Shown here: positions 3,212 through 61,603 of the stretch, piece by piece
Layout of the letters: each line of letters opens with the position of its first letter
Position numbering within the stretch: the first letter of the stretch is position 1
Origin: a virus
Taxonomy: Duplodnaviria > Caudoviricetes
DNA: 61,603 bases
Strand: one strand, 5' to 3'
Virus record (IMG/VR): IMGVR_UViG_3300032322_001005
Location: 1-61,603 of that record
Translations under genes and position numbers: made by a program
The notes under the pieces: model-generated
The model's database searches: none
Seen by the model: the letters and a program-made list of their open reading frames with translations, nothing else
What the model was told of the DNA's origin: nothing

Positions 3212-4064
3212 AACCATTCCCCCGTGTCCGGCAGCAGGCGGTGGCGTCCACCTCTGGATCATGCAAGCAGGCTGGCAGTGCAGGCTCCAAGGAATGGATG
3301 CGCAAGAAGCCGTCCGCTACCTCCGAGCAGGCATGACCCGCTATCCGAACCCAAGGAACGAGGTAGAACACGCAGTAGAGAAAATATATGAAACGATTTT
3401 AGAGAATAATGGGCAGTATAATGCACAGTTCAAAGCCCCGAAATGGCCCGAGCAAGACCCTATCCAGATACGGGAGATCGCCGCTAGTAACCTTGGAGCG
3501 GTTGATCTGTGGGAAAGATCACCAATTCGCCTAGGAGATGACCTAGAGGAGCAGGCACAGCGAGTCCTGCCGAGGCTATTCCCGAACAATCCGTGGGTCT
3601 GCGCTGGAGATAAGTGCAAGTTCTTTACCGAGCGATTAGACCAGTTCCTGCAATCGGCTGGAGGGCTGGAACAGATCGTTCCTAGCCCGATGACAGCGAA
3701 GTATGGCAAGACCAAAGACGGCAAGCAAAGCCAGCATACCCTAGACGCTACAGGTGAAAGAAGATTCCTCGTCGTAGAGGGCGACAAGATCGACAAGGAT
3801 ATACAGGCGGCTATACTTCTGAAGCTCGCAGAGAAGATGCCACTAGCTCTGGTGGTAGACTCTGGTGGCAAGTCACTACACGGATGGTTCTATGTAGAGG
3901 GTCAGAATGAAGACAAGGTTCTCTCTTTCTTCCGTAGAGCGTGTGTTCTCGGGGCAGATCGAGGGCTTTGGACGCGCTCCCAGTTCGCTCGGATGCCGGG
4001 GGGCATGAGGTCAAACGGAAATAGGCAGAACATTCTGTATTGGAACCCAGAGGCTATAGCGTGA
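3201..4064 (+). CDS. DNA primase, AEP / RepB'-like
   Basis: FLVVEGD, VVDSGGKSLHGWF and QFARMPG motifs. Confidence 0.7.
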   Translation: MKDRTIPPCPAAGGGVHLWIMQAGWQCRLQGMDAQEAVRYLRAGMTRYPNPRNEVEHAVEKIYETILENNGQYNAQFKAPKWPEQDPIQIREIAASNLGAVDLWERSPIRLGDDLEEQAQRVLPRLFPNNPWVCAGDKCKFFTERLDQFLQSAGGLEQIVPSPMTAKYGKTKDGKQSQHTLDATGERRFLVVEGDKIDKDIQAAILLKLAEKMPLALVVDSGGKSLHGWFYVEGQNEDKVLSFFRRACVLGADRGLWTRSQFARMPGGMRSNGNRQNILYWNPEAIA

Positions 4065-4291
4065 TCGACTTGTATACATTTATGGGGATAGACGATAACG
4101 GAGACCACAGAATATATGTATCTCCGTTCAGGCTCAACCATTTGAGCGACATGCACGAGCGGGACGATGCGTTTCCGGCTGGAGTCAAAGGAGCCATCCC
4201 TGAAGAGAAGTGTGTTGAAGCACTCCACAAGATAAGAAAGTATTACGATGATAACGAGAAAGGTCGGACTAAAAAGAGGAAGGCCGCTTAA
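4061..4291 (+). CDS. hypothetical protein
   Basis: GTG start overlapping the primase stop. Confidence 0.5.
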   Translation: MIDLYTFMGIDDNGDHRIYVSPFRLNHLSDMHERDDAFPAGVKGAIPEEKCVEALHKIRKYYDDNEKGRTKKRKAA

Positions 4292-4553
4292 AGCTAGGAA
4301 GGGACTGAACCGAGTCAGCAAGAAGCACAGGGCTGAACTCGCGGTCTATTCGGGTAAACGGAAAGCTTATCTTTTAAGCAATCCATGTTGCGATATCTGC
4401 GGTGTTGAAGCAACCGACATTCACCACAAGGCTAGACGCGGAAAGAATCTGAACAACGTAGAGACGTGGATGCCAGTATGTCGCCAGTGTCATCAATACA
4501 TCGAATCAAACGGCAAGTGGGCACGGGAACACGGCTACATAACACAGACTTGA
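4248..4553 (+). CDS. small HNH endonuclease-like protein
   Basis: CDICG...DIHH...N...CRQCH. Confidence 0.75.
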   Translation: MITRKVGLKRGRPLKARKGLNRVSKKHRAELAVYSGKRKAYLLSNPCCDICGVEATDIHHKARRGKNLNNVETWMPVCRQCHQYIESNGKWAREHGYITQT

Positions 4554-4554
4554 T

Positions 4555-5007
4555 ATGACAATATTCGCAATAGACCCCGGCCCCGAGAAAAGCGCGTTCG
4601 TCCAGTTCGACGGGAAGATCATCGACTACGGGCACGTCCCTAACGCAGAGATGCGCCAGCTTCTAATTGGCAGGGAGTATGACCACGTAGCAATAGAGAT
4701 GATCGCAAGCTACGGTATGGCGGTAGGAGCAAGTGTATTCAATACCTGTATGTGGGTAGGACGCTTCTGCGAAATCGCTAGGAAAGAGCCACAATTGTGC
4801 TACAGAAAAGACATTAAACTGCTTTTATGCGGCACGATGCGGTCAAAAGACAAAGACATCAGACAAGCTCTTCTCAAAAAACTAGGCGGGCAGGGAACCA
4901 AAAAACAACCCGGTGCAACCTACGGCATAACCTCGCATTGCTGGGCAGCGTTAGCCGTAGCAGTGTATGCAAAGTCAACTATTGACAACCAAACAGAACT
5001 TCAGTAA
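4555..5007 (+). CDS. RuvC-like Holliday junction resolvase
   Basis: IFAIDPG...AIEMIASYG...K..I...L...WAALAVA. Confidence 0.7.
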   Translation: MTIFAIDPGPEKSAFVQFDGKIIDYGHVPNAEMRQLLIGREYDHVAIEMIASYGMAVGASVFNTCMWVGRFCEIARKEPQLCYRKDIKLLLCGTMRSKDKDIRQALLKKLGGQGTKKQPGATYGITSHCWAALAVAVYAKSTIDNQTELQ

Positions 5008-5010
5008 CTT
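4982..5010 (+). promoter_or_regulatory. sigma70 promoter TTGACA-17-TAACTT
   Basis: Perfect -35 and 17-bp spacer; no plus-strand ORF before the terminator. Confidence 0.65.
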
Positions 5011-5088
5011 CTACATACAACGGTTATTGGTTTCCCGTTGTTTACTGTAGTGTTCATCACTTGGAGGCTCCTCGAAAGGGGAGCCTTC
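5011..5088 (+). ncRNA. candidate small RNA antisense to start codons
   Basis: Promoter, hairpin 5011-5050, linker GTGTTCATC and terminal GC hairpin. Confidence 0.55.
5063..5088. terminator. hairpin terminator between convergent units
   Basis: GGAGGCTCCTC-GAAA-GGGGAGCCTTC. Confidence 0.7.
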
Positions 5089-5350
5089 AAAGTTTCGGGC
5101 GATAGTAGACGCATGGCCTTTTCTTAGCGGCGATAAGAGTCTTGATCGTTCTTTTCTCGACCTTTCCCTCTTTAAACAATCGGCTCAGCTTCTTCTTGCC
5201 GATCTTGAATTTACTTTTAAGTCCGCCGTCTCGATACCATCCAGTCGATTCAATTTCCTTTTCTGTCTGGCCCGATGTTTCTTCAGCGAGCCTCTTCCAC
5301 GCCTCGCTTACAGCGGCAATATCCAAGGATTGTTTGGTTTTCGTTCGCAT
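5087..5350 (-). CDS. small basic, possibly winged-HTH, protein
   Basis: MRTKTKQSLD...KLSRLFKEGKVEK...VYYRP. Confidence 0.55.
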   Translation of the reverse strand: MRTKTKQSLDIAAVSEAWKRLAEETSGQTEKEIESTGWYRDGGLKSKFKIGKKKLSRLFKEGKVEKRTIKTLIAAKKRPCVYYRPKL

Positions 5351-6078
5351 AGGTTTACTGTTAGTTGGTTGTCTGTGTAGTAGCCGTAACCGAATCCTTG
5401 GCTCCAAGCCAAAGTAGCGCGGCGGGTTTTCGCGTAGTCTGCATCGAGCTTCATCAGTGTCCCGACGCAGTAAGCTGTTGAGGGGTTCAGTGTCCTGCCG
5501 GGTTCAACGCCTACCCTATGCAAGTGTCCCATGATACAGTTGCCATGTGACTCTGCATGATCGCGGATGGCTGATAGATTGAACATGAACCCGTGGATGA
5601 ACTTGAACCCACCCAAAGAACAGTATGACCGAATGTCATACGGATACATCCTCGCCTTGAGGTTCTTCGCCACCTTCTCAAGCTCTTGTATAACAATAGT
5701 CGCAGCATGTGCAGCTAGCGCATTAGGGGAGTGCGCCAGCTTGAACAGGCGATCCTCGTGATTGCCGTAAAGGATATGCTGGGGGCGAAGTTCTTGGAGG
5801 AAGTCCACACCAGCAGCGAGATCGTCAGCAACACTCGCCGCTCTATCCGCCGAGTTCGGGTCGTTCATTGCCCCGCTACGAGCCGCCGCCATATCCACGA
5901 AGTCTCCTAAATGGATAGTGGTATCTGGTTTGAACCTGCCTTTAAATGCGAGAACTGCGTCCCGCGCCTCTGGGTCGATGTGATCGCCGTGTGAACATGA
6001 CACAGCCATCCACTTCTTCCATTGTTTACCCACGTTGAACGGAGCGAACTTATCGCTACGCTTCTGGTTTTTTTTCAT
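5308..6078 (-). CDS. calcineurin-like metallophosphoesterase
   Basis: SCSHGD, HLGDFVD, GNHED, FIHG and GHLHR motifs. Confidence 0.85.
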   Translation of the reverse strand: MKKNQKRSDKFAPFNVGKQWKKWMAVSCSHGDHIDPEARDAVLAFKGRFKPDTTIHLGDFVDMAAARSGAMNDPNSADRAASVADDLAAGVDFLQELRPQHILYGNHEDRLFKLAHSPNALAAHAATIVIQELEKVAKNLKARMYPYDIRSYCSLGGFKFIHGFMFNLSAIRDHAESHGNCIMGHLHRVGVEPGRTLNPSTAYCVGTLMKLDADYAKTRRATLAWSQGFGYGYYTDNQLTVNLCERKPNNPWILPL

Positions 6079-6286
6079 CTTGTTTTTCTATTACGGGACA
6101 CGGGAATTCGTCCTGTGACCACATTGGGTTCCCTCTTTCATCAAGGAAGGGAAAGTGTCTCAAGCAAGAATAGGCTCTGTCTTTAAGTTCCTTCACGGTC
6201 TTAGGTCTGGTCGAGCTATGCAGAAGATCGCGCAAGAAGTTGCGAGTCTTGTAGAGTGCGTATTGTTGTTCGCTTCGAATACTCAT
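6056..6286 (-). CDS. hypothetical phage protein
   Basis: MSIRSEQQYAL...RNFLRDLL...AYSCLRHFP. Confidence 0.6.
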   Translation of the reverse strand: MSIRSEQQYALYKTRNFLRDLLHSSTRPKTVKELKDRAYSCLRHFPFLDERGNPMWSQDEFPCPVIEKQDEKKPEA

Positions 6287-6474
6287 ACTGTTGATTTCTC
6301 CGTGTCTGGGGTGAACAACTGAAAGAAAAGATTTGTGGGGCCGAACCAAGAGAACCCGTTACCCCACGTAACGATTCCTGCTGTGGAAGATTCCACGACT
6401 TGTTGTGACTTACCGCAGCCTTGCTGGTCGCCACGGAATGTCCACCACGTTCCTTGTTTCGGTAGTTGGTTCAT
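6283..6474 (-). CDS. hypothetical protein
   Basis: Coupled by ATGA overlaps. Confidence 0.5.
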   Translation of the reverse strand: MNQLPKQGTWWTFRGDQQGCGKSQQVVESSTAGIVTWGNGFSWFGPTNLFFQLFTPDTEKSTV

Positions 6475-6785
6475 AATTCAAATGCTGTTTCTTTGCACAG
6501 GTATTGTTTCGGGAACACAGAGAGGAGTCGCATCACCGCATCTTCAGCACGGGCAATAGAGTCCTCGTCGTTGTCCGGCAGAACTGCGTGTAAGACTTCG
6601 TGGATCGCTGTGCCGAGTGCCTCGCTGCTGGGCTTGATGTAAATCGTGTTGTCCTCATACGAGCAAAGCCCCTCGTCATCATCGGCGATGTTGACCTCCG
6701 GTGCGTCGGACTTTCTAGGGGCACGGAAGAGCAGCTTCCACTTCTCTCCGTTTATTGTCAGCGTTCGCCTGACTACGTTTGGCAT
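6471..6785 (-). CDS. small zincin-like metallopeptidase
   Basis: GLC...IYI...TAIHEVLHA (HExxH). Confidence 0.7.
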   Translation of the reverse strand: MPNVVRRTLTINGEKWKLLFRAPRKSDAPEVNIADDDEGLCSYEDNTIYIKPSSEALGTAIHEVLHAVLPDNDEDSIARAEDAVMRLLSVFPKQYLCKETAFEL

Positions 6786-28526: not shown

Positions 28527-29152
28527 AACCCCTCCCGCTTCCAGCAGTGCGTAATTTGCCTAAAGTCGTTTTTGAGTTCATCATTTAGCCCGTTGTGTTG
28601 CACGTCGAGGGGAACGTGAACAGCGGACTTTAGCTCACAGGAGCATACAAGGCAAGCACCGAGAGCATAATCGTTCTTGGTTTTTCTGTCGCCTAGAACT
28701 CCGTGAATAAGCTTCATCACTCCTCCCATACACGCACCGCAGGAGAATTGGAGCGTAACGTTGTTCGGGCATCCCGCACAGATGTTCGCCCTGCGCTCTG
28801 CTTCCTCTTGCGAGACGAATGCAGCCCTGCCGTTCAAGACCTGCATCGCCCACGACTTGATCATATTCAAGAACGACAGCACAGCCTGCAACGAAAGCTT
28901 CCGGCGAACCACCTTGTCCAGCGAGACGGGATTGCAGAGCTTTCCCCACCCATTCTGGATGCACATCTCCGAGATTAACTCGTCCTCCCAGTCTCCCGTC
29001 AGAACGATATTGTTTGCCAAGCAATGATTCACATACGCTTTGATGAATGCTCGGTAATCATAATGTTTGAGAAGCAGTCCTGTAATAGGATGCTTGTAGC
29101 GCCACTCACCGGGGGGACACGTGGCCTTGTCCGTGTAGCGATATTGAACCAT
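28523..29152 (-). CDS. Cys-rich metal-binding protein
   Basis: RRANICAGCP, CGAC, CLVCSC, CW. Confidence 0.7.
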   Translation of the reverse strand: MVQYRYTDKATCPPGEWRYKHPITGLLLKHYDYRAFIKAYVNHCLANNIVLTGDWEDELISEMCIQNGWGKLCNPVSLDKVVRRKLSLQAVLSFLNMIKSWAMQVLNGRAAFVSQEEAERRANICAGCPNNVTLQFSCGACMGGVMKLIHGVLGDRKTKNDYALGACLVCSCELKSAVHVPLDVQHNGLNDELKNDFRQITHCWKREGL

Positions 29153-32100
29153 TACTTGTAAAGGTTCTGTAATCTCTTCTCTGCCTTCTCGCGTTCTTTG
29201 CCCTGCTCGATCACGTCTTTGTTCATCTGCCTAATCATCCTCGCAACGTCCGTGTCGTTCAAGCGCATTGTGTATAAAAGTTCGCTAACCCCAGCAACGA
29301 ACATTACCCTGCGCTCTTCAGGGGTCAACGTATCGGCAAGCTCTTGGCTGGACAATTCTTTAACCCGATCCGAAAGTTCTGCAAATTGCCCGGGCATGAT
29401 TTCCAGCATACCAAGATTTACTCCCGATCCTTTGCCAGTATAACGATACAAGAAAGCGCGGTCTTTCATGTATTTATCAAACGGCATTACCTCGCCGCTA
29501 TCATCCAGCGCATTTTCGTTTTCGATCTGCGATTCGATGATGTATTGCATGTAGTTGATTGAATCAATCGCTTTGCTTTCAAAAATCTCAGGGAAACCGC
29601 CCAAAACAATATTGGAAAACAATTCTGTCCTGAACTTGCGCCAGATCAAATTTGCTTCTTCTTTCTGCTTTTCTTCGTCGGGTTCGTCCATATCTACTCC
29701 TAGGAGCGCGTAGATAGTAGAAGCACCGAGTCCGTAAACAGCAGGCAGAAGGAATCTGCGAGCTGCATTGAATGTAATCATTCCAGCAATTGTTCCGCTA
29801 AGCCCCTTTGCCGCAGCTTTCCTTTGATCTGAATCGCCAAAGATTGCATCTCGCGCATCCGAAAACATGCGAAGTCTTTCTTGAAGAACGAACGAATAGA
29901 ATGGCATGAAGATCGCTTTGAATAGATTGGCGTATCCATTGTTACCCCTCTGCGATAGTTCTGCCATCCTTGTCGGGTCTGAAGAGCCTTGATACATGTC
30001 GATCATTTGTTCGGCATACATCGCAGCCTCAAGGCGAATCGGGTCGCTTTCAGCATTTAGTCTCGATTCGTTCTCCCATCCAGTAAACTCAACACCTTTG
30101 TCTTGAAGATACTTTCTGTAATAAGAAAGCCATCCAGAGCCAGCCGCCAAGAAGTCAGACTTTTTGAGTGCGTATAACCAAACATTGTTAAGGCGCTCTA
30201 CAGCATCAGATACAACTACCCATCTTCCGTCCTCGACAAATCTTTCAATCTTGCCGTAATTTCCTTCTGTTTGGTTAATCCACTTGGTTCCACCAGCAAT
30301 CTCGCCACGCTCTCCGATGGAGTATTGCCGCAGTAAACTCATGGCACCTTCGCTTGATAAGTCTCTCGTGCTTTCGGCAATCAACGCAGGGTCGCCTACA
30401 TTTGCCAACGTCGTAGCCATTTGCGAAGGATATTGCTTAAAGAATTGTCCGTATCCGCCGAGTGCAAGGCCGATGCCAAACCTGCGCGTAACGTTTGCAA
30501 TCGTGTTGGCAATCGCGCTACCTCCATCTCCGTCGTATGTTCTTGCTAGTGCGTTTGAAAGAACAGCGAGCCGCCTGTTAAGGAAATCAAGGTTCTCTGC
30601 GCCGCCAACAGCCTTCTCTGCATCTGGAGAGTCGAGGAACGCGATAATCTGTTGCCAAGCCGCGTTTGTATTCGCTTTGGAGATTTGATCTGAAAGCGAG
30701 TTGAGAACGTTTTTCGTAAGGTTGTAATCAATTACAGAATCTTTAGGAAGAACTGTAACCTTCTTGCGCTTAATTGAGTTCGCCGCTTGCTTTGGCTTGG
30801 AAACATCTTTTCCTGTTGTAATAACAACCTTGTCTGGTGGTTTTACCTTTGAACCGACCTGCCTATACCGAATTGGCAGGTAGTTCGGATTGTTGTAATT
30901 GTCGGTTTGATTATTAAACAATTCGTCATGTTCCTTTAACATCGGCTTATATTCTGGAAGAACCTGATCTTTTAAGAATATAAGTGCCTCGTAGTTCGCA
31001 ATGTGTGTTCTCTTTAGGTTTTCAAGAATACCCTGCACACTATCGGCATATACCTCATCCAATGCCTTTTTAATAAACGGAACGCTTTCTCTATCAGACC
31101 TTGATGGCGAGCGTTCTTTAACTGCTATATCCTCTTCGATAAGTTTTCTAATTCGCTGAATCCCTTCAGCCTCAGTCTCGTCTGGATCAATCTGAATAAG
31201 ATTTCCAGCTACCCCCATAGAGAACATTCCTTGTTTGTCGGAAATCTTTTGTTTTGTTTCGTCTTCAATCTGTAAATACCTTTCGCGTATACCGTCAGAT
31301 ATTTCGGCGTTGATTTTATTTGCCCTTGCTGTCCCTTTAGAAAGCCTTGCCATTCCCATTTGAACAAGAAGACGCGGCGCTCCATTTTTGCCAGCAATAT
31401 TGCGAAATGTGTCCGCAACAGACTGAACGCTAAGATTCAATGCACGACCAGTTCTTTCTCCAAGGAACGAGTTTAGGAAATTAAACATCGCCTCATTGCG
31501 TTTGATTTGGTTTGGGTCGTTTGCAGCTTCCGCCGCTCCCATTTGCCCCTTGGCTGTCGCTGAAAACTTCTGCGCTCCGAAAAAGTAATTGTTAACAAGA
31601 ATCGAGTTTGCCGCCCGAATAAACTCCTTACGCGCACCTACGTCCAACTGCGACAAATTAAGTCGCTTCATATCGTCAAGTATCTCTGTCGTATCGTCTG
31701 TCGGGTTTGGATTTTTGTAGTTTACCAAAGCGATCTGAGCTTCTTCAGAAATCTTGTTGATCGCAGCTTCAAGTGCCTCTGCTCGCTTTACTCGGCGTTC
31801 ATCACGAGCATCTTGCTTGCGGGCCTCGATCATGCTGGTGAATTCCTCTTCGGACATATCCAGCAAATCAACAGCCTCGTCTTCGGTGATACCTTCTCTT
31901 CCTAGCTCTTGAGACAATGCACGGAGATACAGTTGGCGCTCCGCTTCTTGGCGAGTAGCGTCTATCTCTGTATAAAGATCGTTGAGATAGCTCTGCATTT
32001 CTGCGTCTGGAATAACAACATAATCCTCCGCAGTCACAGGTCCATAGCCCTTCATATACTCGGTTAGAACTGCCGCAAACTCACCGGGGTTGTTTATCTC

Positions 32101-35100
32101 CCTAGGGTTGATTCCAGCGAACTCTTTCAGAACGTCTTTTACTGGTGCTGGGATATCTTTCTGTTTTGCTAGATTCTTTGCAGAGCTAATGGCTTTCTTC
32201 GCATCCGACACGTCCCTGTCGTAATTCGCGTTGTCGATTACCTTGTTCGCGTAGTTCAAGAACGAGAGGATGGACGCGTCGTTGTCGAAACGGACTTGCA
32301 TCGCCTTGTTGACGATAGCGCGAAGCTGCGGGGCTTTTACCCTACCGCGAATTGTTTCCTCGCGGAGTTGGGCTGTCAGGTCTTTTACGAACTCCTTCTG
32401 CTGCGCGGCATCCAGCCTGCGCTTCTTCGCCCCGAGTTTGAGTTGATCCTTCAACGCGGTCTTCTCGTTTATCGTTAACAAGTCACGCTTGCGCTTCACT
32501 CCAGTTGTCGCCTCGATCAATCGCTGGATTGTTGTTGGGCGTGGTTTCTTTTGCGGAGCCTCTGCGGCGGGTTCTACTGTAGGCTCGGCTTCTACTGCCG
32601 CCTCTGGTTCAGCCGCCATCCTAAATATTCCTGCATCCATCTCGCGGATGATTCGCTCTCCGCTCTGGAAGCGTTTAATCGCTGAAGAGAGGACTGCCTG
32701 CGCTCCTCGGTCTGTCAGCCTGAACTTGGTTCCGACCAGCCTGTTCAGCACAGCCTTTACGGCATTTACAAATCGCTCCCACTTCGGGGCGATCCTATTC
32801 TCTGCGATCAGCGTCCCGAATGCGCGGACTTGGTTCTCCTCCATCTGCACGGACTGAGACTCTTCCGAGTAGTGGCGGCGAATAATATCGTCTGCCTGCG
32901 CCTGTTGCTCTGGTGACAACGCGTTCCAAAACTCTTTAAACGCAGCCTGCACTTCAGGATCGCCGTAGACGAAGTGACCGAGTTCGTGCGCGATATTGTC
33001 TGCGATGTTGTCTTCTTTGGAGAGATACGCTTGGTTGAGGATAATCTGACCAGTCTCTAGGTTGTATCCCGCCTTGAAGCGATAGTCTGGGTCTGTGCTA
33101 TCGTTAACAATTGTGAGGTTCGCCGGGGCTTTTCCGCCGAAGAACTTCTTCGCCGCTACCAAGATTTGCTCGTATGTGTAGCGATTGCTTTCTTGAACTG
33201 GGCTTGGCTCAACCGCCATGTATCTTTGGTCTGGCCCGATTATTCCAGTTGGGCGGGCTTCCGTTTTGGGATTCTTAACAAATACGCGAGAGCCAACCAT
33301 TATTGCCTCATCGCCACCGACAACCGTCCTCTTACTTCTTACATCAATAAATTGGCTTGATCGTATCGGATTATAGCCAACCTCCGTCCACACATTCGGA
33401 TCGTTAATGTCGGCAGGGAGTTCAGCGATTGGCTCGTAGTTGCCCTTGACTGTAGCTAGTCGGAACTTGCCAGCACCCATTGCAATGGTTAGCGCCCCGC
33501 CTTCTCGCATGTTGCGAGTCATAAATCTTGGATTTGTAACTTTAGCTATGCCAGTAAATGCAACAACGTCTCCAATTTTTTTAGAATCATCGGCAACTGG
33601 AAGATGTGCCGTAATTGCATATACCGTGTCGCCTGCCTCTGTTGATTTGTTATAAGTTGGAATGTCTATTCTAAATTCATACTCGGAACCTTCTTGGAGG
33701 CGAGAATTCCCATTTTTGTCAAGCAATCCAACCTGATCAATTTTATTGCTCTGAATGTATTGTTTTATTTTTGCATCTGTCGGAATTGGGTCTGGCCCTT
33801 TGGCAACGAATGGGTCAAGCGCGCCTACCAAATTAGCATACTCATCAACAGTAATCTCCTTGTTCTTCATCCTTACCGCAGCGACAGCTAGTTGCGGGTT
33901 CCTAGCCATAACCCTGTTTGAAGATGCTTTATCAAATGCCGCCTGCTCTTCTTGGGTTCGCGGTTTTATCGCTTGCGGCTGAATCGCCATTCTCCGCACT
34001 CCTTTCGCCTTTACGGGCTTTACGTCGTTCTTCTCTACGACCTGCACCTCTCCGGTTCGCTCGTTCTTTACGGAGTAATACTGCTCTCCTAGATCGCGCT
34101 CTGTTGCTGTCTGCGGGATGACTTTTTCTACTACGTAGGTCTGCGGGCTTTTGCCGAGCTTGATGCGGTTGCCTACTGCGATTCCCTCTGGTGCTGCTTC
34201 TGGTGCGGGTGGAGTTGTTACAGCGGGGGCGACGGGTGCGGGTGCTGGCGCAGGGGCCGCTTGTATCTCCGCGACTCGCTCTGCTGGGGTGAGGCGAGGA
34301 AGAGGAGCTTGCGCTCTAGATAAAATAGCCTCTCCGTCTTGATTTATGACGGGCTGGCCTTTGATAATATCGACAAGCCCCGCTGCGGATAGCGCGGAAA
34401 TCTGTTCGCGTTTTGCCGTGTTTTCCGCTACAGAGCGCAAATTGTTTATTACTTGTGCATCGGCAGAAGTTATTGGTTCTGCTGCTACTGGCTGCGGGGC
34501 GGCTGCGGCTGGCTGGGCTGCTCGTTCTCTGCGCTCAAGCTCTTGGACGCCGGACTCAACTTCGCTAATAGTTTCTGGGAATGCGACAGCTTCGCCAGAA
34601 GGGCGAACCTCCCTGCGTAGCGAGGACTTGTATTGTTGGTATTTGGGGTTGCTTTCATAATTTGTGATGTCTTGGTCAATTAGCAGATATGGTTCAGCTA
34701 ATGCTTGTTTTTGCTCTTCGGATATCGGAAGTCTGTCAATAACTCGCAGTGCTGTATCAATCTGTCGATTTGCCACCTCGATCTGCTCTGGGCTGATCTG
34801 CGTGTAAAACTCTGGTGTGCTTGAGATTTTGACAGACCTCTTTCCCTCTTTAACCAATTTAGATTCGCCAACGTCAAATATGTCGGCAATCGCGTTAAGT
34901 GTTGGAGAGTTTTCAATTTCAATTAACGCCTGCGGAATTTCAAAATCGTCCTCTGTTGCGGCGATTTCTTCTTCTGTTACCTGAGGCTTGGATTCGATAA
35001 CCGACGCAACCTGTGGCAACGCAGGCTCGGCAGGAGCCTGTCTAGTCTGCCCTTTGCGAACCCACTCAACCCCTTCGATCTCGCTGATAGGTTGGTTGGG

Positions 35101-36768
35101 ATTTACTGGAACTTCATACTTTTCAGCGGTGGCGAACGGCCTGAATACCGTCACCCCATCTTCAACAGATATTGCTCCGCGCATTCCGTTGAATACGAAT
35201 GTGTCTTTGTCTCTGATTGATTCGGCTATGGTTCTTTGCGGAGCGGCAAGCTCTTCTGGAGCGGCAGGCGTAATGGGTGCGGCAGGTGCTGCTGGCTGCG
35301 TAACAGCCGCAACTGCGGGAGCTGCCTCTTCTACGGGTGGGACTGTAATCGGCGTGGGTGCTACCCCTGCACGGAACTCGGCAAGTGCGTCCAGCCCAGC
35401 TTGAGCGAATGCACGGGTATCCGCGTCTTCGCTTTCGAGTTCTTCGCGGAAGCCCCGCTCGGTCTGGGCGATAGACTCCGGCGACATTTTGGCGAAGGTT
35501 GTTTTGAACTCTTCTTTGGCGGGAACCTCGTATACCGTGGGCTTGGGTGCAAACTTCTCGCGCTCTTGCGCAAGTTCGGTTTCTGTCTGTTCGTTGGTCT
35601 GTTTCTCTTGCTGCAACGCATCCTTTGCTGAAGTAACCGTAACTGCCTGTGCAGTAAGGGGAGCGTTATTGTTTTCCAAGTTTGACGCAACCTTCGCGGC
35701 CTCTTGAAGTTGACGTTGTTTTCTACGCTCGGCAAATCCTTGTTGCACTTTACCGATTGCGATTTCCGCAGCACCCGGCCCGACCTCGCCAACGATTTCA
35801 GCAAACACATCCTTTGGTCTAATTTCTTCGCCAGCAGCAAGCGATCCAGCAACTTCACCACCGCCACCCAGAGCGGCTTGAATCGCTGTTTCTGCGGCGA
35901 CTTCACGCACTGGCGTCTTAAACGCAGCCTTGGTGATTTTAGCCACCTTACCGCCGATACCAGCGGATAGTGCATCAAACGCAGCGACAGGAACGCCTCG
36001 CTTGAGTGCTTTGTCTTTTGCCTCGTCAACCAGCTTTTGGTTGGAAAAGAATTCGGTGATGCTGTCTGGATTGTTTATGTCCATTCCTGCATTCTGTAGT
36101 TCCTCAAGCATCTTGCCGCCGTATTCGGTAGCCAGCGAACCAGCAAATGTTCCTGCAATCTGACCACCCAAGAATCCAGCGGGTGCCCCAATTACTGTAG
36201 GTGCGCCAATAGCAGCGCCAACCGTTCCAGCGGCAAGACCAGTGCCCAATGCTGGAAGATTTCCAGAAAGACCCTCTGCGACGATATTTGTCGTAACCTC
36301 AAACGGATTGGTGACAAACGCCTTTACCGCATCCATTCCTTCGGCATCCTGATACGCCTTGTAGTCGGGCGATACCTCTCGTGCCTTTTTTTCAAATTCC
36401 AACTTAGAGATTTCTTTTGCTTCCTCTGGAGTTACGCCTCCGACTGTTTTGATCGCTTGTTGGGATGAGGCAAAAGCGTTCTGTGCCGCGTTGGCGATTC
36501 CTTCAAATACACCAACCTCTGGCTTTAGCTTCCTTTTGGAAAGTTGACCAAAATCAGCAAACTCTTCCTCGTCGCCATACTCTTTGGCTTTCTGATTATA
36601 CCATCCTGTAAACCCAGAAGCGAACTCCTCGTCACGATACAGTCCTTGCTGCATGGCGCGGTCAACCGCAGTCCTGCTCCACTTGCCAAAGTAATCTTTC
36701 TTCTTTGCCGTGTCTAAAGACTGAAATTCAGGATCGGATTCTACTTCTTTCCAAGTCGGAAACCTCAT
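29152..36768 (-). CDS. giant internal virion/DNA-ejection protein (polyvalent type) with a zincin HExxH domain
   Basis: About 2540 aa; Gly/Ala-rich hydrophobic N-terminal segment; AHELGH at 32974-32988; helical C-terminus; likely start MRFPTW at 36768. Confidence 0.75.
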   Translation of the reverse strand: MRFPTWKEVESDPEFQSLDTAKKKDYFGKWSRTAVDRAMQQGLYRDEEFASGFTGWYNQKAKEYGDEEEFADFGQLSKRKLKPEVGVFEGIANAAQNAFASSQQAIKTVGGVTPEEAKEISKLEFEKKAREVSPDYKAYQDAEGMDAVKAFVTNPFEVTTNIVAEGLSGNLPALGTGLAAGTVGAAIGAPTVIGAPAGFLGGQIAGTFAGSLATEYGGKMLEELQNAGMDINNPDSITEFFSNQKLVDEAKDKALKRGVPVAAFDALSAGIGGKVAKITKAAFKTPVREVAAETAIQAALGGGGEVAGSLAAGEEIRPKDVFAEIVGEVGPGAAEIAIGKVQQGFAERRKQRQLQEAAKVASNLENNNAPLTAQAVTVTSAKDALQQEKQTNEQTETELAQEREKFAPKPTVYEVPAKEEFKTTFAKMSPESIAQTERGFREELESEDADTRAFAQAGLDALAEFRAGVAPTPITVPPVEEAAPAVAAVTQPAAPAAPITPAAPEELAAPQRTIAESIRDKDTFVFNGMRGAISVEDGVTVFRPFATAEKYEVPVNPNQPISEIEGVEWVRKGQTRQAPAEPALPQVASVIESKPQVTEEEIAATEDDFEIPQALIEIENSPTLNAIADIFDVGESKLVKEGKRSVKISSTPEFYTQISPEQIEVANRQIDTALRVIDRLPISEEQKQALAEPYLLIDQDITNYESNPKYQQYKSSLRREVRPSGEAVAFPETISEVESGVQELERRERAAQPAAAAPQPVAAEPITSADAQVINNLRSVAENTAKREQISALSAAGLVDIIKGQPVINQDGEAILSRAQAPLPRLTPAERVAEIQAAPAPAPAPVAPAVTTPPAPEAAPEGIAVGNRIKLGKSPQTYVVEKVIPQTATERDLGEQYYSVKNERTGEVQVVEKNDVKPVKAKGVRRMAIQPQAIKPRTQEEQAAFDKASSNRVMARNPQLAVAAVRMKNKEITVDEYANLVGALDPFVAKGPDPIPTDAKIKQYIQSNKIDQVGLLDKNGNSRLQEGSEYEFRIDIPTYNKSTEAGDTVYAITAHLPVADDSKKIGDVVAFTGIAKVTNPRFMTRNMREGGALTIAMGAGKFRLATVKGNYEPIAELPADINDPNVWTEVGYNPIRSSQFIDVRSKRTVVGGDEAIMVGSRVFVKNPKTEARPTGIIGPDQRYMAVEPSPVQESNRYTYEQILVAAKKFFGGKAPANLTIVNDSTDPDYRFKAGYNLETGQIILNQAYLSKEDNIADNIAHELGHFVYGDPEVQAAFKEFWNALSPEQQAQADDIIRRHYSEESQSVQMEENQVRAFGTLIAENRIAPKWERFVNAVKAVLNRLVGTKFRLTDRGAQAVLSSAIKRFQSGERIIREMDAGIFRMAAEPEAAVEAEPTVEPAAEAPQKKPRPTTIQRLIEATTGVKRKRDLLTINEKTALKDQLKLGAKKRRLDAAQQKEFVKDLTAQLREETIRGRVKAPQLRAIVNKAMQVRFDNDASILSFLNYANKVIDNANYDRDVSDAKKAISSAKNLAKQKDIPAPVKDVLKEFAGINPREINNPGEFAAVLTEYMKGYGPVTAEDYVVIPDAEMQSYLNDLYTEIDATRQEAERQLYLRALSQELGREGITEDEAVDLLDMSEEEFTSMIEARKQDARDERRVKRAEALEAAINKISEEAQIALVNYKNPNPTDDTTEILDDMKRLNLSQLDVGARKEFIRAANSILVNNYFFGAQKFSATAKGQMGAAEAANDPNQIKRNEAMFNFLNSFLGERTGRALNLSVQSVADTFRNIAGKNGAPRLLVQMGMARLSKGTARANKINAEISDGIRERYLQIEDETKQKISDKQGMFSMGVAGNLIQIDPDETEAEGIQRIRKLIEEDIAVKERSPSRSDRESVPFIKKALDEVYADSVQGILENLKRTHIANYEALIFLKDQVLPEYKPMLKEHDELFNNQTDNYNNPNYLPIRYRQVGSKVKPPDKVVITTGKDVSKPKQAANSIKRKKVTVLPKDSVIDYNLTKNVLNSLSDQISKANTNAAWQQIIAFLDSPDAEKAVGGAENLDFLNRRLAVLSNALARTYDGDGGSAIANTIANVTRRFGIGLALGGYGQFFKQYPSQMATTLANVGDPALIAESTRDLSSEGAMSLLRQYSIGERGEIAGGTKWINQTEGNYGKIERFVEDGRWVVVSDAVERLNNVWLYALKKSDFLAAGSGWLSYYRKYLQDKGVEFTGWENESRLNAESDPIRLEAAMYAEQMIDMYQGSSDPTRMAELSQRGNNGYANLFKAIFMPFYSFVLQERLRMFSDARDAIFGDSDQRKAAAKGLSGTIAGMITFNAARRFLLPAVYGLGASTIYALLGVDMDEPDEEKQKEEANLIWRKFRTELFSNIVLGGFPEIFESKAIDSINYMQYIIESQIENENALDDSGEVMPFDKYMKDRAFLYRYTGKGSGVNLGMLEIMPGQFAELSDRVKELSSQELADTLTPEERRVMFVAGVSELLYTMRLNDTDVARMIRQMNKDVIEQGKEREKAEKRLQNLYK

Positions 36769-50773: not shown

Positions 50774-50802
50774 TTGACGAGGTGCCCAGCATTTCGTATG
50801 CT
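50774..50802 (+). promoter_or_regulatory. sigma70 promoter TTGACG-17-TATGCT (leaderless dnaB)
   Basis: 8 nt upstream of ATG 50811. Confidence 0.65.
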
Positions 50803-50810
50803 CTTCTTCG

Positions 50811-52079
50811 ATGAACACCAACCTACCCGCCGATCTGGCGTCGGAGCAGGGATTCCTATGCTCCGTCATTACAAACCCGAAGATAATCGACAAGTCCGTT
50901 GACCGCGTAACCGAAGAGCATTTCACTTCCTTCGGCAACCGCGAAATCTGGAAGGCTACGTTAGCCCTGTGGCAAGAAAGGCGGGCCGTAGACCCGATTA
51001 CTGTAGCAGGAAGTCTTGAGAAGGCTGGCGTATTTGAAGAAGCTGGGGGGAAAGAGTATTTAACCCAAACCGTAGAGTATTGCCTTACGCCTTCGCATTG
51101 GAAAGAATACCTGCAAAATATCCACGAGTGCTTTGTTCGTAGAAAGATACACGCCGCAGCACAGAAGATGATCGAAGGTGCGCTCGACAAAGGAAAGAAG
51201 ATCGAAGAACTGCAAGAGAATGCGAGTAAGGATATTGTCTCGCTAAGTGCGACAAATGCCGAGAACCGTCACATATCGGCGGTTCTGAGCAATTGTATTA
51301 CGAGGTGGGAGGAGGCAGCAAACTCTGGAGGTGCGGTTAATCGCGGGCACGAGTCTGGGATCAGCAGGTGGGATCACGCGACCAGAGGATTCAGACCAAG
51401 AACCCTGCACGTTATTGCGGGTGCGGCTAAAGCAGGCAAGACTACTTCTGCCTTGCAGATGGTAACGAATCCAGCTTTCGAGAAAAACGTTCCTATTGCC
51501 TTGATCTCGATGGAGATGGGCGCGGAAGAACTGCTCGACAAGTATATCGCGCAGAAAGCCAAGGTGAATATCTCCGATCTACTGGACGGAAGGCTGGATC
51601 ATGGAGCGCACGAGAGGATGTCACAAGTTATCGCTAAATCTTCCAAACTACCAATTTACATCGCAGACGAGGCGTGTATGACAGTGACGCAATTCAAGGC
51701 GAGATGCAGGAGGCTCGTGTCCGAGAACAAGGTAGAGATCATCATGGTCGACTACGCCCAGTTGATGGAGGCATCCGGCGATCCCAAGAATAGAGAGCGC
51801 GAGGTGGCAGAGGTAAGCAGAACGGCGAAGATTCTCGCCAAAGAACTGAATGTCTGTATTGTCCTTCTGGCCCAGCTAAACGACAACGGAGCCGTCCGCG
51901 AGTCGAGGACATTCTACATGGACTGCGACTCTTTTACAAAAGTCCACAAAGACGAGGAGAATACAGACCCGTATGCTTATTGTCTAACAATAACCCACAA
52001 CCGACACGGAGCTACAACAATGGTTCCCGTCAGGTTCGTGAAGTCCCAAGCCAGATTTGAGGAGGCCAGTTATGAATAG
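50811..52079 (+). CDS. dnaB: DnaB-like replicative helicase
   Basis: N-terminal EQGFL domain; AGAAKAGKTT; ISMEM; VDYAQLM; LAQLN; NRHG. Confidence 0.9.
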   Translation: MNTNLPADLASEQGFLCSVITNPKIIDKSVDRVTEEHFTSFGNREIWKATLALWQERRAVDPITVAGSLEKAGVFEEAGGKEYLTQTVEYCLTPSHWKEYLQNIHECFVRRKIHAAAQKMIEGALDKGKKIEELQENASKDIVSLSATNAENRHISAVLSNCITRWEEAANSGGAVNRGHESGISRWDHATRGFRPRTLHVIAGAAKAGKTTSALQMVTNPAFEKNVPIALISMEMGAEELLDKYIAQKAKVNISDLLDGRLDHGAHERMSQVIAKSSKLPIYIADEACMTVTQFKARCRRLVSENKVEIIMVDYAQLMEASGDPKNREREVAEVSRTAKILAKELNVCIVLLAQLNDNGAVRESRTFYMDCDSFTKVHKDEENTDPYAYCLTITHNRHGATTMVPVRFVKSQARFEEASYE

Positions 52080-53219: not shown

Positions 53220-54060
53220 ACACAGGTATATCAGGGATACCAAAAGCGAACCCTACACCGAACGGGTATAGAGTCGCAGAGAAGGGTAGGAATAGCAGTA
53301 GATCGGGTATACAGAAAAGCTTCGTAAAAGCCCGCTATTCGCGTTAGGGTAGCCAAACCGAGCAAAGTATCGGAAAGAAGAAGAAAACTCGCTGTAGAGG
53401 CTATAAACGCAAAAGAGAGGCTGGCTATACAGTGGGAGAGAGTCGTGTTTCGATAGGCAACAAATACACGAGTGGTGTCGCTATACAAGCAACGTAGTGA
53501 GTAACAAATAGTTAGGCGTATAGTATAGGCATAGATGTAGAGTTTGTGTAGAGATAATTTTTAATTTTTAATTTTGATTCGGGAATTTAAATTTTGATTT
53601 TCCCCTAGGTCGTTTTTTTACCCTGCGGCGCCGTGCCAAGTCCCCCTCCCCCTACCACGGGTGGCGTGTGGTGTGCTGCTGCCGCTCCGTCACTCCGCCC
53701 GCCGCTCTACCCTACCGCCCGCCCCGCTTGGCATGGTGCGGTGCCTCTCATGTGGTGCGGTGTGCGGTGCGGTGCCTGCCATGCTTGGCCTTGTGTGGTG
53801 CGCTGCCAGTCTCAACAATAGCGGCTGCCTTACCTTGTGCGATGGGCCGCGCTTGCCTAACCCGTTGATGCTGTGTCGCGCTACACTATAACATGATATA
53901 AACAGCAATAGTCGATAGCTGAACATTGCGCGAGGATGCCCGTAGAATGCGCGAAACGATTGGCAAGGGGTAGCATAGCGGGGCAAATTGCGATGCAATA
54001 GCGGGGCGATTAGCGCGAAGGAATAGGCAATGCGAGATGCTGGCCTGATATCACCGGAGC
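53220..54060. other. long non-coding region, candidate genome terminus/packaging region
   Basis: Purine-skewed segment, T-tracts at 53556-53619, C-run and a GT-rich low-complexity tract. Confidence 0.4.
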
Positions 54061-54079: not shown

Positions 54080-54334
54080 TTGGCATGAAAGATGCTGCGC
54101 ATTTCCGCAAGGCTATGCAAAAGCGCAACTTGCAAAAGGCATGGCAAGAATTGCACGGAAAGCGGCAACCTTTGCCGGGTAAATCCTGCCTACCGGAAGA
54201 AATTGCCATTTCGGAAAGGTGTTGCGTTTGCGGAGCTTATGGCTTGGCATGGGAGATGCTGCGCAATTTCGTTGCGTAAGTGCTTGAAATTGCACCTTGC
54301 CATTGCCTTGGCAACACTTGGCATGGCGAATGCT
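54080..54334 (+). promoter_or_regulatory. three sigma54-type (-24/-12) promoter motifs TTGGCATG-N4-ATGCT
   Basis: 54080-54096, 54244-54260 and 54318-54334, all with GG-N10-GC spacing. Confidence 0.6.
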
Positions 54335-54386
54335 ATGTATTTTGCCAAGCGGGGGAACCCGTCAAACACCAAACCAAACCAAACCA

Positions 54387-54602
54387 ATGATCATCGAAAC
54401 CAAAGAACAGTTCGCAATATTCAGAATCCTTCAGCTTCGCGCCGCTCTCCGTTTGGAGTGTGCGGGAATGCGTCATTCAAGCGGAAGATCGGTTGCCAAG
54501 CTAATCAAGCAACAGTACGGATTTAAGGGGAGCAAGCAAGCCATACTGGAACAGCTTTGCGCACATATCGAAGCTATCAAGGCGGGGGAGGCTACCGCTT
54601 AA
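54387..54602 (+). CDS. early hypothetical protein
   Basis: MIIETKEQ...ALRLECAGM..S.GRS..K; (AAACC)n leader. Confidence 0.65.
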   Translation: MIIETKEQFAIFRILQLRAALRLECAGMRHSSGRSVAKLIKQQYGFKGSKQAILEQLCAHIEAIKAGEATA

Positions 54603-54988: not shown

Positions 54989-55035
54989 TTTGTTCCCCCC
55001 GGAACGCCTAACTTAAACCAATAGATAAATACATA

Positions 55036-55608: not shown

Positions 55609-55824
55609 ATGAACACAACACAACACATTACCCGTAGCGAAGGGATGCGATCCCGCTGCACTTGCGAGCATTGCAGAGAATCACGGCGGATTCGTTTAAA
55701 TGATTCCGCCCCCGATATGTTCGACGCCCTTCAAGCTGTCTGCGATGCCTACGGGGAACAGGATTCGCTACTAATGGCGCAAGTCAAAGCGGCACTTGAT
55801 AAAGCGAAAGGAGGCGCTAAATGA
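55609..55824 (+). CDS. early hypothetical protein
   Basis: CxCxxC; APDMFDAL...AALDKAKG. Confidence 0.6.
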   Translation: MNTTQHITRSEGMRSRCTCEHCRESRRIRLNDSAPDMFDALQAVCDAYGEQDSLLMAQVKAALDKAKGGAK

Positions 55825-59427: not shown

Positions 59428-60452
59428 TTGATTATTTTCTCCAGAATTTCATTGGTTTGTTCGTCAAAGGTTTCTTCCTTCGCCATATCCGTGAGGAACT
59501 CGCGGAGTATGCCTTGGGTTTTGTCGGACAACTGGTGGAAACTTTTCACCAGTGCGACAGCGAAGTGGAACGAGGCTTGCCCTGCGTTACACATCGCACA
59601 CTTAGTAGCGATAATCAGAAGCTCTTCTGCGCCTCCGAATTCTTTAATCCAAGCGGTTGATGATTTATCCAGCTTTTGCAGAGGCTCTTTGCCTTTCAGC
59701 ATGCGGACGTGTGACCGAGCTTCGGCGCATGTCCAGCTTTCTCTACGCGCTTGATCTATCAGCGACTTGATCTGCTCGTTGTTTGTAGCTTCGTCCTCGC
59801 TGAACTTTGCGGTGGCGATCTCGACTGCTACTGTCGGGCTGATCTCGTGGCGCTGGTGTAATGGGATTCGCTGGGCTGTCCGGTGCCAGTTGGACACAGC
59901 AGAGTAGGACATCTTGAGACTGGCTGCGATCTGATAAACAACGTTCTCGTGCCCGAGGCGGATGAGGTTGCTGATTCCATCACCAGCAAGCCACATTCCC
60001 TTTGAAGACATGTCCACGCCCATACCAATAGCTGCGGCGTAGTCTTCAGGTGTAGGGATTGTCCCCTGCTTTGGGCGGAACTGCGTCATGAACTCACCGA
60101 AGTCGAAGCGTTCGGAGAGGCGCGAGTAACTGTTATCGAGTCGAGAGGTAAGCGCGGACTCAAGGATGGACTGCTCCGTGCCCTCTGCTTGTTTAACAAG
60201 TTCGACTGGTAGTTCTTCCAACTCGCCATCGGAGTATTTGATTAAGGCGCATGCTTCTTCAAGCAGCGCCCAGTGATTTTTCGGGGAGTCCTCGTCAATT
60301 TCATCCTCCCGCTCACAGCAAGCGATGAGTTTTAGAGCCGTTTTGATATCTGCCTTGTGCTTTATAGCAAGCATTTCGGCGAACTGCTGGCGAGATACCT
60401 CGCCTGTCGGGAGCTTAAAGGTGGCCCGTAACCTTGGTGTTTGTGTGTTCAT
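59424..60452 (-). CDS. HTH-containing protein (LmbU-like WxxGD plus HTH segment)
   Basis: MWLAGD...IAASLKMSYSAVSNW.R.A..IP..R. Confidence 0.5.
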   Translation of the reverse strand: MNTQTPRLRATFKLPTGEVSRQQFAEMLAIKHKADIKTALKLIACCEREDEIDEDSPKNHWALLEEACALIKYSDGELEELPVELVKQAEGTEQSILESALTSRLDNSYSRLSERFDFGEFMTQFRPKQGTIPTPEDYAAAIGMGVDMSSKGMWLAGDGISNLIRLGHENVVYQIAASLKMSYSAVSNWHRTAQRIPLHQRHEISPTVAVEIATAKFSEDEATNNEQIKSLIDQARRESWTCAEARSHVRMLKGKEPLQKLDKSSTAWIKEFGGAEELLIIATKCAMCNAGQASFHFAVALVKSFHQLSDKTQGILREFLTDMAKEETFDEQTNEILEKIIK

Positions 60453-60485
60453 CGAATTTCGTTGTAGCAAATGACGTGCCAAGTT

Positions 60486-61243: not shown

Positions 61244-61603
61244 TTAGGGTTGTGCAACCGCACGATAGGCGATCACGTCTTGTTTGATTTTGGCGATCCC
61301 ATCCGCGAGGAATGCCGCCGAGGTTGTGTCTGACATGCGGAAGAAGTCGTTGGCTTTGGCAGGAACACGCTCGTCCTTCTGCCATTTGCTCGTTGCGAGG
61401 AACTCGTCTGGAGTAATGTCCTCCTGTATTAGCTGCTCGAAAAGTGCCTTGTGGTTCTCGCCGTTGAAGCGTTTGCCTGTAGCTTCTTTAGCTGGGGCTT
61501 CCGCTGTCTCTACCTTCGGGGCGGGTTTGGACGATTCTACGGGCTTTGTAGGCGCAGCATTAGGCTTTCCTTGGGGGCGTCCCATTGCCGCTTCTCCGTC
61601 ATC
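61244..61603 (-). CDS. erf: ERF-family ssDNA annealing protein, C-terminal part (5' truncated)
   Basis: Reading frame enters from the contig end as DDGEAAMGR, the ERF DDDG motif; upstream of the SSB-like gene. Confidence 0.55.
   Translation of the reverse strand, partial: DDGEAAMGRPQGKPNAAPTKPVESSKPAPKVETAEAPAKEATGKRFNGENHKALFEQLIQEDITPDEFLATSKWQKDERVPAKANDFFRMSDTTSAAFLADGIAKIKQDVIAYRAVAQP

Follow-up and report, generated by a model that had tools for sequence, protein, structure and literature searches.

A small noncoding RNA of about 75 to 85 nt, predicted from the plus strand where two gene blocks of an uncultured phage converge, is very probably a real, functional and conserved molecule of a previously undescribed family, to judge from its pattern of sequence conservation. 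Members of the predicted family occur in a clade of phages that are uncultured and roughly 60 to 70 kb in size. We propose that a sigma-70-like promoter within the 3' end of a resolvase gene drives transcription of the RNA, or that the RNA is cut from the resolvase 3' untranslated region, and that its single-stranded linker would pair with phage mRNAs at the sequence 5'-AUGAACACAC(AA), located at their 5' end or close to it. The mRNA of an Erf-like recombinase would be the leading target; those of a gene of 342 aa, of another of about 125 aa and, in the lineage studied here, of dnaB would follow. By pairing, the RNA would mask the start codon and keep ribosomes from loading, in a system where Shine-Dalgarno sites are few. 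Taken whole, mechanism included, this small RNA is the best explanation that we can offer, though we hold it tentatively and at slightly under even confidence.

The window, that is, the whole stretch of 61,603 bases that was analyzed, is the linear IMG/VR record IMGVR_UViG_3300032322_001005, which is about 90% complete. Positions 4982 to 5095 form the meeting point of the two gene blocks. On one side, the last genes of a plus-strand replication block are those for an HNH endonuclease and then a Holliday junction resolvase (4555 to 5007, plus strand; phrog_1770, E = 3.7e-13); on the other, a long minus-strand block closes with a metallophosphoesterase gene (5308 to 6078, minus strand; phrog_221) and then a conserved 87-aa open reading frame (ORF; 5087 to 5350, minus strand), whose stop codon lies in the foot of the second hairpin of the RNA and which has full-length relatives at 31 to 46% identity (tblastn). 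In a near-identical relative, L004, the body of this ORF has been swapped for unrelated sequence of similar length (L004 2238 to 2430 against window 5102 to 5295). The protein encoded there is just 46% identical, while what flanks it, the RNA unit to one side and the phosphoesterase gene to the other, is still 94 to 97% identical; the mosaic boundary falls just outside hairpin 2.

No tRNA was found in the whole window, and most proteins of the phage have no family match. A 2,538-aa ORF in the structural block (29152 to 36768, minus strand) has neither a PHROG nor a Pfam family. Between 53500 and 54340, an AT-rich segment (53500 to 53620) is followed by a GGTGCGGTG-rich stretch (53640 to 53800); TTGCG/TGGCA motifs are repeated across this region, in which no convincing gene was seen, and it may be a regulatory or origin region. 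Cultured phages in the phage collection searched gave no match by DNA or with two proteins, and a genome scan with DnaB returned a single match, at 27% identity, to an Oligoflexia MAG, which provides no host lead.

The predicted RNA spans positions 5017 to 5095 on the plus strand, about 79 nt with inferred ends, as placed by two covariance models (R1 and R2). Hairpin 1 (5017 to 5041) consists of a stem joining 5017 to 5023 with 5035 to 5041 and an 11-nt loop at 5024 to 5034, UUAUUGGUUUC; the loop motif UUGGUU is retained in most lineages, though not in all. A single-stranded linker (5042 to 5061) carries the conserved seed GUGUUCAUCAC at 5050 to 5060. It leads into hairpin 2 (5062 to 5089), a terminator-like structure with a 12-bp GC-rich stem and a GAAA tetraloop (5074 to 5077), and a weak U-containing tail, AAGUUU (5090 to 5095), lies over the last codons of the minus-strand 87-aa ORF. 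A hairpin, a linker and a second hairpin in one unit had been described in the first-pass annotation of this DNA, and all were located at 5017 to 5089. The plus-strand fold has an energy of -35.8 kcal/mol (z = -4.75), which was equalled by none of 200 shuffles. In one sequencing run, made up of contigs that are probably DNA and say nothing of transcripts, a 214-nt contig covers 4845 to 5056.

A search with the phosphoesterase gave 213 relatives, and among the best 80 of these, 30 loci had a convergent resolvase in a window-like arrangement; together with the window they make up 31 sequences, 23 of them unique. All 23 present the same plus-strand order of promoter-like site, about 7 nt, hairpin 1, linker, hairpin 2 and tail. 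The unit occurs as about 11 sequence types in related uncultured phage contigs, and its architecture is found in the further lineages L147, L149, L154, L155 and L200. Among the same best 80, the 37 loci with a co-oriented resolvase (group B) had no unit near the phosphoesterase gene. Searches with blastn-short and nhmmer matched the unit in near-identical relatives only, with weak matches in L012 to L014. When 18 of the 23 unique sequences were aligned with MAFFT and passed to RNAalifold, no pairs resulted because the hairpins were misaligned, and covariance-model alignments were used instead. Built from three lineages, R1 matched the window unit (5017 to 5095, plus strand) with E = 0.0037, L041 with E = 1.9e-6 and L015 with E = 0.069. 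R2 scored 71.2 bits on window positions 5017 to 5095 (plus strand), matched L013 and L014, which lie outside its training set, with E values of 3e-4 to 5e-4, and found a single copy per genome in six of six genomes. Across the whole window, Rfam gave no match at gathering scores; the best sub-threshold match on the plus strand was ar15, with 17.1 bits where the gathering score is 40, and matches taken by E-value were no better than chance.

Covariation was assessed in an alignment of 17 distinct rows and 19 pairs that had been fitted to the model. In this model-fitted alignment, 93.7% of paired cells could pair, compared with 69.2% in shuffles, and both-sided changes were present at 18 of the 19 pairs, a count reached by none of 500 shuffles. 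Sliding the partners by 1 to 3 columns lowered pairing to 52 to 61%. Helix 1 shows both-sided changes at six of seven pairs, and in helix 2 all 12 pairs covary, with 100% of cells paired, 19 of them as G.U and none unpaired. The structure of the unit, which the first-pass annotation had suggested seeking in relatives, is therefore both present there and conserved through covariation. The fold is more stable on the plus than on the minus strand in all 23 unique sequences, the hairpin 2 loops of relatives read GAAA, GCAA or UUCG on the plus strand, and the G.U pairs of helix 2 become C.A mismatches if read on the other strand. Together, these one-strand properties indicate that the functional molecule is an RNA read from the plus strand. 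They also bear on the idea that the conserved feature is a DNA-level element at the block junction, such as a cruciform or a protein-binding site for recombination, replication or packaging. The adjoining Holliday junction resolvase gene and the inverted repeats would suit such an element, but G.U-specific covariation and GNRA or UUCG loops are properties of RNA on one strand, and the motif recurs only at gene starts; we regard a DNA-level element as very unlikely.

Directly upstream of the RNA, a -35-like TTGACA (4982 to 4987, plus strand) lies within the last codons of the resolvase gene, and a -10-like TAACTT (5005 to 5010, plus strand) overlaps the resolvase stop TAA (5005 to 5007). The promoter had at first been described as a consensus one; TTGACA is indeed present, but TAACTT agrees with the consensus at three of six positions and a consensus promoter scan of 4000 to 6500 called no promoter-like sites. 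In relatives, TTGAC[AGT] or TTGCAC is found in 23 of 23 unique sequences, as is TAnnnT 16 to 17 nt after the -35 element. The TTGAC block is retained even though the resolvase frame across it differs (ATT GAC as against TTG ACT), which argues for a DNA signal rather than a protein constraint. At the other end of the unit, hairpin 2 shares with intrinsic (Rho-independent) terminators a GC-rich stem and a stable tetraloop followed by U residues. Its description as terminator-like holds for stem and loop, but it went unlisted as a terminator in the 4000 to 6500 scan because its tail, AAAGTTTC, has just three T. The usual definition of an intrinsic terminator, a stem-loop followed by at least five U within 8 nt, likewise does not extend to the window tail AAAGUUUC. 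Tails of relatives, which likewise run over the end of the minus-strand ORF (its final codons and stop), are richer in U (for example, CUAUUUUA and UUCAUUUUUUU) and range from 3 to 7 U.

These signals are open to a second reading, in which the two hairpins are the structured 3' end of the resolvase operon (a tandem terminator or stabilizer) and the linker serves termination, processing or protein binding, with no role in trans. The site is, after all, where two gene blocks converge; hairpin 2 is terminator-like with its tail over the end of the neighboring gene, UUUUUG follows hairpin 1 in three lineages as it would in a terminator, the statistics for target pairing are modest, and R2 also matches a hairpin-UUCAUAG-terminator arrangement after a capsid-like gene in two of five smaller related phages. 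However, an exact 10-nt linker stays constant as the stems drift, which a plain U-tract or spacer does not need, the promoter-like site directly upstream is kept regardless of reading frame, and no U-run follows hairpin 1 in four of the first seven lineages. A terminator alone would leave the conserved promoter-like site, hairpin 1 and the constant linker unexplained. We therefore consider a purely 3'-end role unlikely, though it deserves to be kept in view, and continue with the discrete small RNA. The elements in the smaller phages are worth describing in their own right. L118 and L119, two of the five such phages examined (35 kb, group B), carry them at 1501 to 1573 and 1501 to 1583, respectively (both minus strand; E about 1e-6), directly 3' of a 318-aa capsid-like ORF. 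Each comprises a hairpin, GU-rich UUGGUUU repeats, UUCAUAG or UUCAUAC, and a GCAA-loop terminator with a long U-tract, and the element may be a 3' untranslated relative of the RNA.

Within the small RNA, the linker (U)GUGUGUUCAU stays the same from lineage to lineage even as both hairpins drift. The seed has an unpaired probability of 0.48 to 0.85 in predicted mature RNAs of 73 to 85 nt. Exceptions to the seed are GUAGUGUUCAUCAC in the window lineage, GUGUGUGUGU, which lacks UUCAU, in G002, UUCAA in L041 and UUCAC in L147. Constancy of the linker could in principle reflect a coding sequence on the opposite strand, a rival that the first-pass annotation had itself named: a minus-strand mini-ORF of 18 codons (MNTTVNNGK...; 5001 to 5057), beginning with ATGAACAC (MNT...) and encoding a small protein or leader peptide. 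Its ATG stands in a favored start context in 21 of 23 unique sequences, all of which keep MNT. Its frame, length and peptide are nevertheless all unconserved. The mini-ORF varies from 7 to 21 codons among relatives, the close relatives L013 and L014 having 20 and 8, respectively; L029 is out of frame with L016 through a 1-nt indel; and the start has no ATG in L015 and is TTG in L041. Moreover, G.U pairs in the stems become C.A mismatches on the minus strand, the minus strand showed no promoter, and 6 to 8 nt upstream of the ATG there is a GC-rich hairpin. That this mini-ORF is the conserved feature is extremely unlikely.

What the linker might recognize was addressed through its complementarity to start codons. 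The matches first reported were confirmed as to position: GTGTTCATC at 5050 to 5058 has its complement, GATGAACAC, at 50810 to 50818 and at 60445 to 60453 (minus strand), the 8-nt match ATGAACAC is at 55609, and the leader match AAACCAAT is at 55015. A further 12-nt pairing had been attributed to the hairpin 1 loop; AAACCAAT is present at 54381, but the pairing uses two stem bases (5022 to 5023), the loop proper being 5024 to 5034. In the window, ATGAACAC occurs four times against 1.71 expected (11 of 100 shuffles reach four) and AAACCAAT four times against 2.72 expected (27 of 100 reach four). The totals of both words are thus at chance level, and the sole unusual aspect is that they are placed at gene starts. 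The seed motif is found elsewhere in the DNA at gene starts only.

Targets were tested in the window and five whole related genomes, using simple codon-score gene calls (73 to 99 genes each). Start regions with at least nine contiguous Watson-Crick pairs to the linker number three to seven per genome, compared with 0 to 0.64 expected from gene interiors. Against 300 dinucleotide-shuffled linkers, matches of at least 9 nt gave P values of 0, 0.037, 0, 0.12, 0.11 and 0.013 in the six genomes, and their count lies above that of shuffled linkers in four of six. The longest match per genome is marginal by the same comparison (P = 0.06 to 0.28). Duplex energies of starts against interiors gave P values of 0.73, 0.96, 0.97, 0.02, 0.13 and 0.002, and in four of the six genomes starts were no better than interiors. 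ATGAA opens 195 of 547 genes, and ATGAACAC, which opens 11 of 547, is among the commoner start words. With ATGAA starts so favored, any GU-rich RNA containing UUCAU will match starts to some degree. The proposed concentration of seed matches at starts is therefore borne out in part, by the count of matches of at least 9 nt, but some of it reflects the general ATGAA preference and the longest match is marginal. Shine-Dalgarno-like 4-mers are present upstream of 11 to 26% of starts and in 16 to 20% of interiors (window and five genomes), and regions upstream of starts are A-rich (34 to 42% A). Phage starts are poor in Shine-Dalgarno motifs, as had been claimed, and their lack of enrichment suggests that the host probably initiates translation largely without Shine-Dalgarno pairing.

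Among individual genes, erf is the best conserved candidate target for which start-codon pairing is predicted. The gene beginning MNTQSENI (about 244 aa) encodes an Erf-like single-strand annealing recombinase (PF04404, E = 5.6e-27; phrog_2324, E = 1.5e-44). The window holds its C-terminal 119 codons (61244 to 61603, minus strand), a fragment 97% identical to residues 123 to 241 of the Erf of a near-identical relative. The record ends inside the gene, placing the N-terminal codons (about 122) and the start region beyond its end, which is why erf went unseen in the first reading. Across relatives, erf ranks first of 50 ortholog clusters both by match length and by duplex energy. Its start offers 8 to 13 contiguous pairs across or beside the AUG; when each linker is compared with its own erf start, the match is 9 to 13 nt in nine of nine records, and three further lineages give 11 to 13 nt. 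Near-identical relatives of the window have an 11-nt erf match, GUGAUGAACAC.

Whether linker and erf start change together is less clear. The window-lineage linker matches 11 nt at its own erf flank and 8 to 9 nt at erf starts of other lineages, and the G002 linker matches 10 nt at its own erf leader and 7 to 8 nt across lineages; these own-versus-cross comparisons of flanks are few and were picked post hoc from about ten lineages. By own-minus-cross score, erf is first of 41 clusters. Seed-target covariation, a prediction of the first-pass annotation, accordingly finds its best case in erf, but the signal is weak, at about 2.2 standard deviations above the mean. In G002, UUCAU is gone from the seed while the erf start is unchanged. 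A search with an Erf alignment gave 244 relatives, and among the best 80 of these, a sister clade of 12 loci has an identical erf start, ATGAACACACAATC. In this clade, R2 found nothing within 10 kb of erf at the 12 loci, nor in two complete genomes, and the seed word occurs solely opposite the erf start, as its complement; two one-mismatch matches to the word (L205 and L206) were rejected as not RNA-like. The sister clade keeps the erf start with no detectable RNA, which implies that the 5' sequence of erf either predates the RNA or does not depend on it. Its constancy owes something to the protein as well, since the start ATGAACACACAA encodes the conserved N terminus MNTQ.

After erf, the ranking of clusters continues with the neighboring 87-aa ORF, the 342-aa gene and a gene of about 125 aa. 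The start of the 342-aa gene, third of the 50 ortholog clusters, has 9 nt complementary to the seed (60445 to 60453, minus strand); the "HTH" label once attached to this gene, listed at 60452, finds no support, its product having no Pfam or PHROG family. A possible 71-aa gene has 8 complementary nt at its start (55609 to 55616, plus strand), although the gene caller chose a later start. For dnaB, proposed as a target, the 9-nt complement at its start is present (50810 to 50818, plus strand; ATG at 50811), but the site is lineage specific: dnaB starts in relatives differ, and the seed match is confined to the window lineage. The broader suggestion of a trans-acting RNA that shuts off phage genes gains from a discrete plus-strand RNA gene and an exposed, conserved linker, and loses from the marginal length of the best matches and the poor conservation of the dnaB site. 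Masking the start codons of these genes, erf foremost, is the best mechanism on offer for the RNA, but we put the chance that this is its job at somewhat below even.

The architecture of the candidate target promoters offers one way in which such masking might work. At erf loci, TTGAC[AC]-N16-TAnnnT ends exactly 9 nt before the ATG at 26 of 65 ATGAACAC[AG]CAA sites, and the dnaB ATG of the window follows 8 nt after the end of TTGACG-N17-TATGCT. More generally, sigma-70-like TTGAC-N16/17-(T/C)AnnnT sites end 6 to 11 nt before the ATGAA starts of dnaB, erf and the gene of about 125 aa (window 50774 to 50813 and 2437 to 2477; erf loci of relatives L120 to L169), which suggests that the early mRNAs of these genes would be near-leaderless. 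Motifs resembling sigma-54 -24/-12 elements, TGGCAY-N5-WTGCT, occur four times in the window against 0.18 expected, a count that none of 100 shuffles reaches. Three stand in tandem upstream of a small gene at 54387 (54081 to 54096, 54245 to 54260 and 54319 to 54334, all plus strand), and the fourth belongs to the 342-aa gene (60466 to 60481, minus strand), where TGGCAC-N5-TTGCT ends 13 nt before the ATG, a position kept in relatives. If these promoter motifs are real, the AUG of a candidate target would fall within about 0 to 3 nt of the mRNA 5' end, and the seed would pair with that very end. We speculate that the RNA family is specialized to silence near-leaderless mRNAs, with the seed UGUGUGUUCAU pairing with the extreme 5' end 5'-(1-3 nt)AUGAACACACAA. 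Such a 5' end would be common to the erf mRNA, from a sigma-70-type promoter, and that of the 342-aa gene, from a sigma-54-like one. Pairing would stop ribosomes from loading at a 5'-terminal AUG in a host that hardly uses Shine-Dalgarno sites. Recombination and replication functions would thereby be shut off posttranscriptionally, by an RNA whose gene closes their own module. This specialized mechanism remains doubtful.

Among known systems, DicF of the Qin prophage is a phage-encoded trans-acting small RNA. PreS of lambda and VpdS of VP882 are likewise phage encoded and, as their accounts describe them, regulate by imperfect pairing with mRNAs made elsewhere (PMC12197685; bioRxiv 10.1101/2024.10.31.621285), PreS activating host dnaN (bioRxiv 10.1101/2024.10.31.621285; PMC12197685). 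The window RNA has no sequence relation to any of the three, and, as far as those accounts extend, they act on host genes, whereas the best candidates here are the phage's own recombination and replication genes. By analogy with PreS on dnaN and with VpdS, as described there, the main targets could instead be host mRNAs, or a host RNA-binding protein, with complementarity to phage starts a by-product; the seed does fit a generally favored start context. The longest conserved matches are nonetheless phage genes, no cultured relatives were found in the phage collection searched and the genome scan gave no host lead, and we consider such a host-directed role quite unlikely.

The proposed RNA acting on phage starts can also be set beside RNAs with similar modes of pairing. 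GcvB (RF00022) of enterobacteria appears alike in its working, insofar as the published description covers it: through a single-stranded seed rich in G and U, it pairs with A/C-rich sequences that enhance translation and lie in many mRNA initiation regions (PMC3879156). In contrast, the window RNA is phage encoded and falls below every Rfam threshold, so that it is no member of that family; its seed includes an anticodon-like CAU that would cover the AUG itself, and upstream regions here are A-rich, not C/A-rich overall. Sar of P22 and OOP of lambda are described as short phage cis-antisense RNAs, transcribed opposite their target (PMC12197685). According to that description, they resemble the window RNA in the proposed block of phage-gene translation initiation through start-region pairing, but they are fully complementary to their target, whereas the candidate targets of the window RNA lie kilobases away and would pair over 8 to 13 nt. 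Nor is the window RNA itself cis-antisense, its sole overlap being with about 9 nt at the end of the 87-aa ORF, the final codons and stop (5087 to 5095). It belongs to none of these named families.

To our knowledge, lytic or uncultured phages have so far yielded few small RNAs, and the majority of characterized phage small RNAs act on host genes. At the least, the RNA described here represents a new structured family ready for curation, in a phage group for which no cultured relatives were found. It also offers a concrete candidate regulon, consisting of erf, the 342-aa gene, the gene of about 125 aa and dnaB. If the proposed mechanism is true, phage recombination and replication would be controlled at the RNA level, through start-codon masking on near-leaderless mRNAs.
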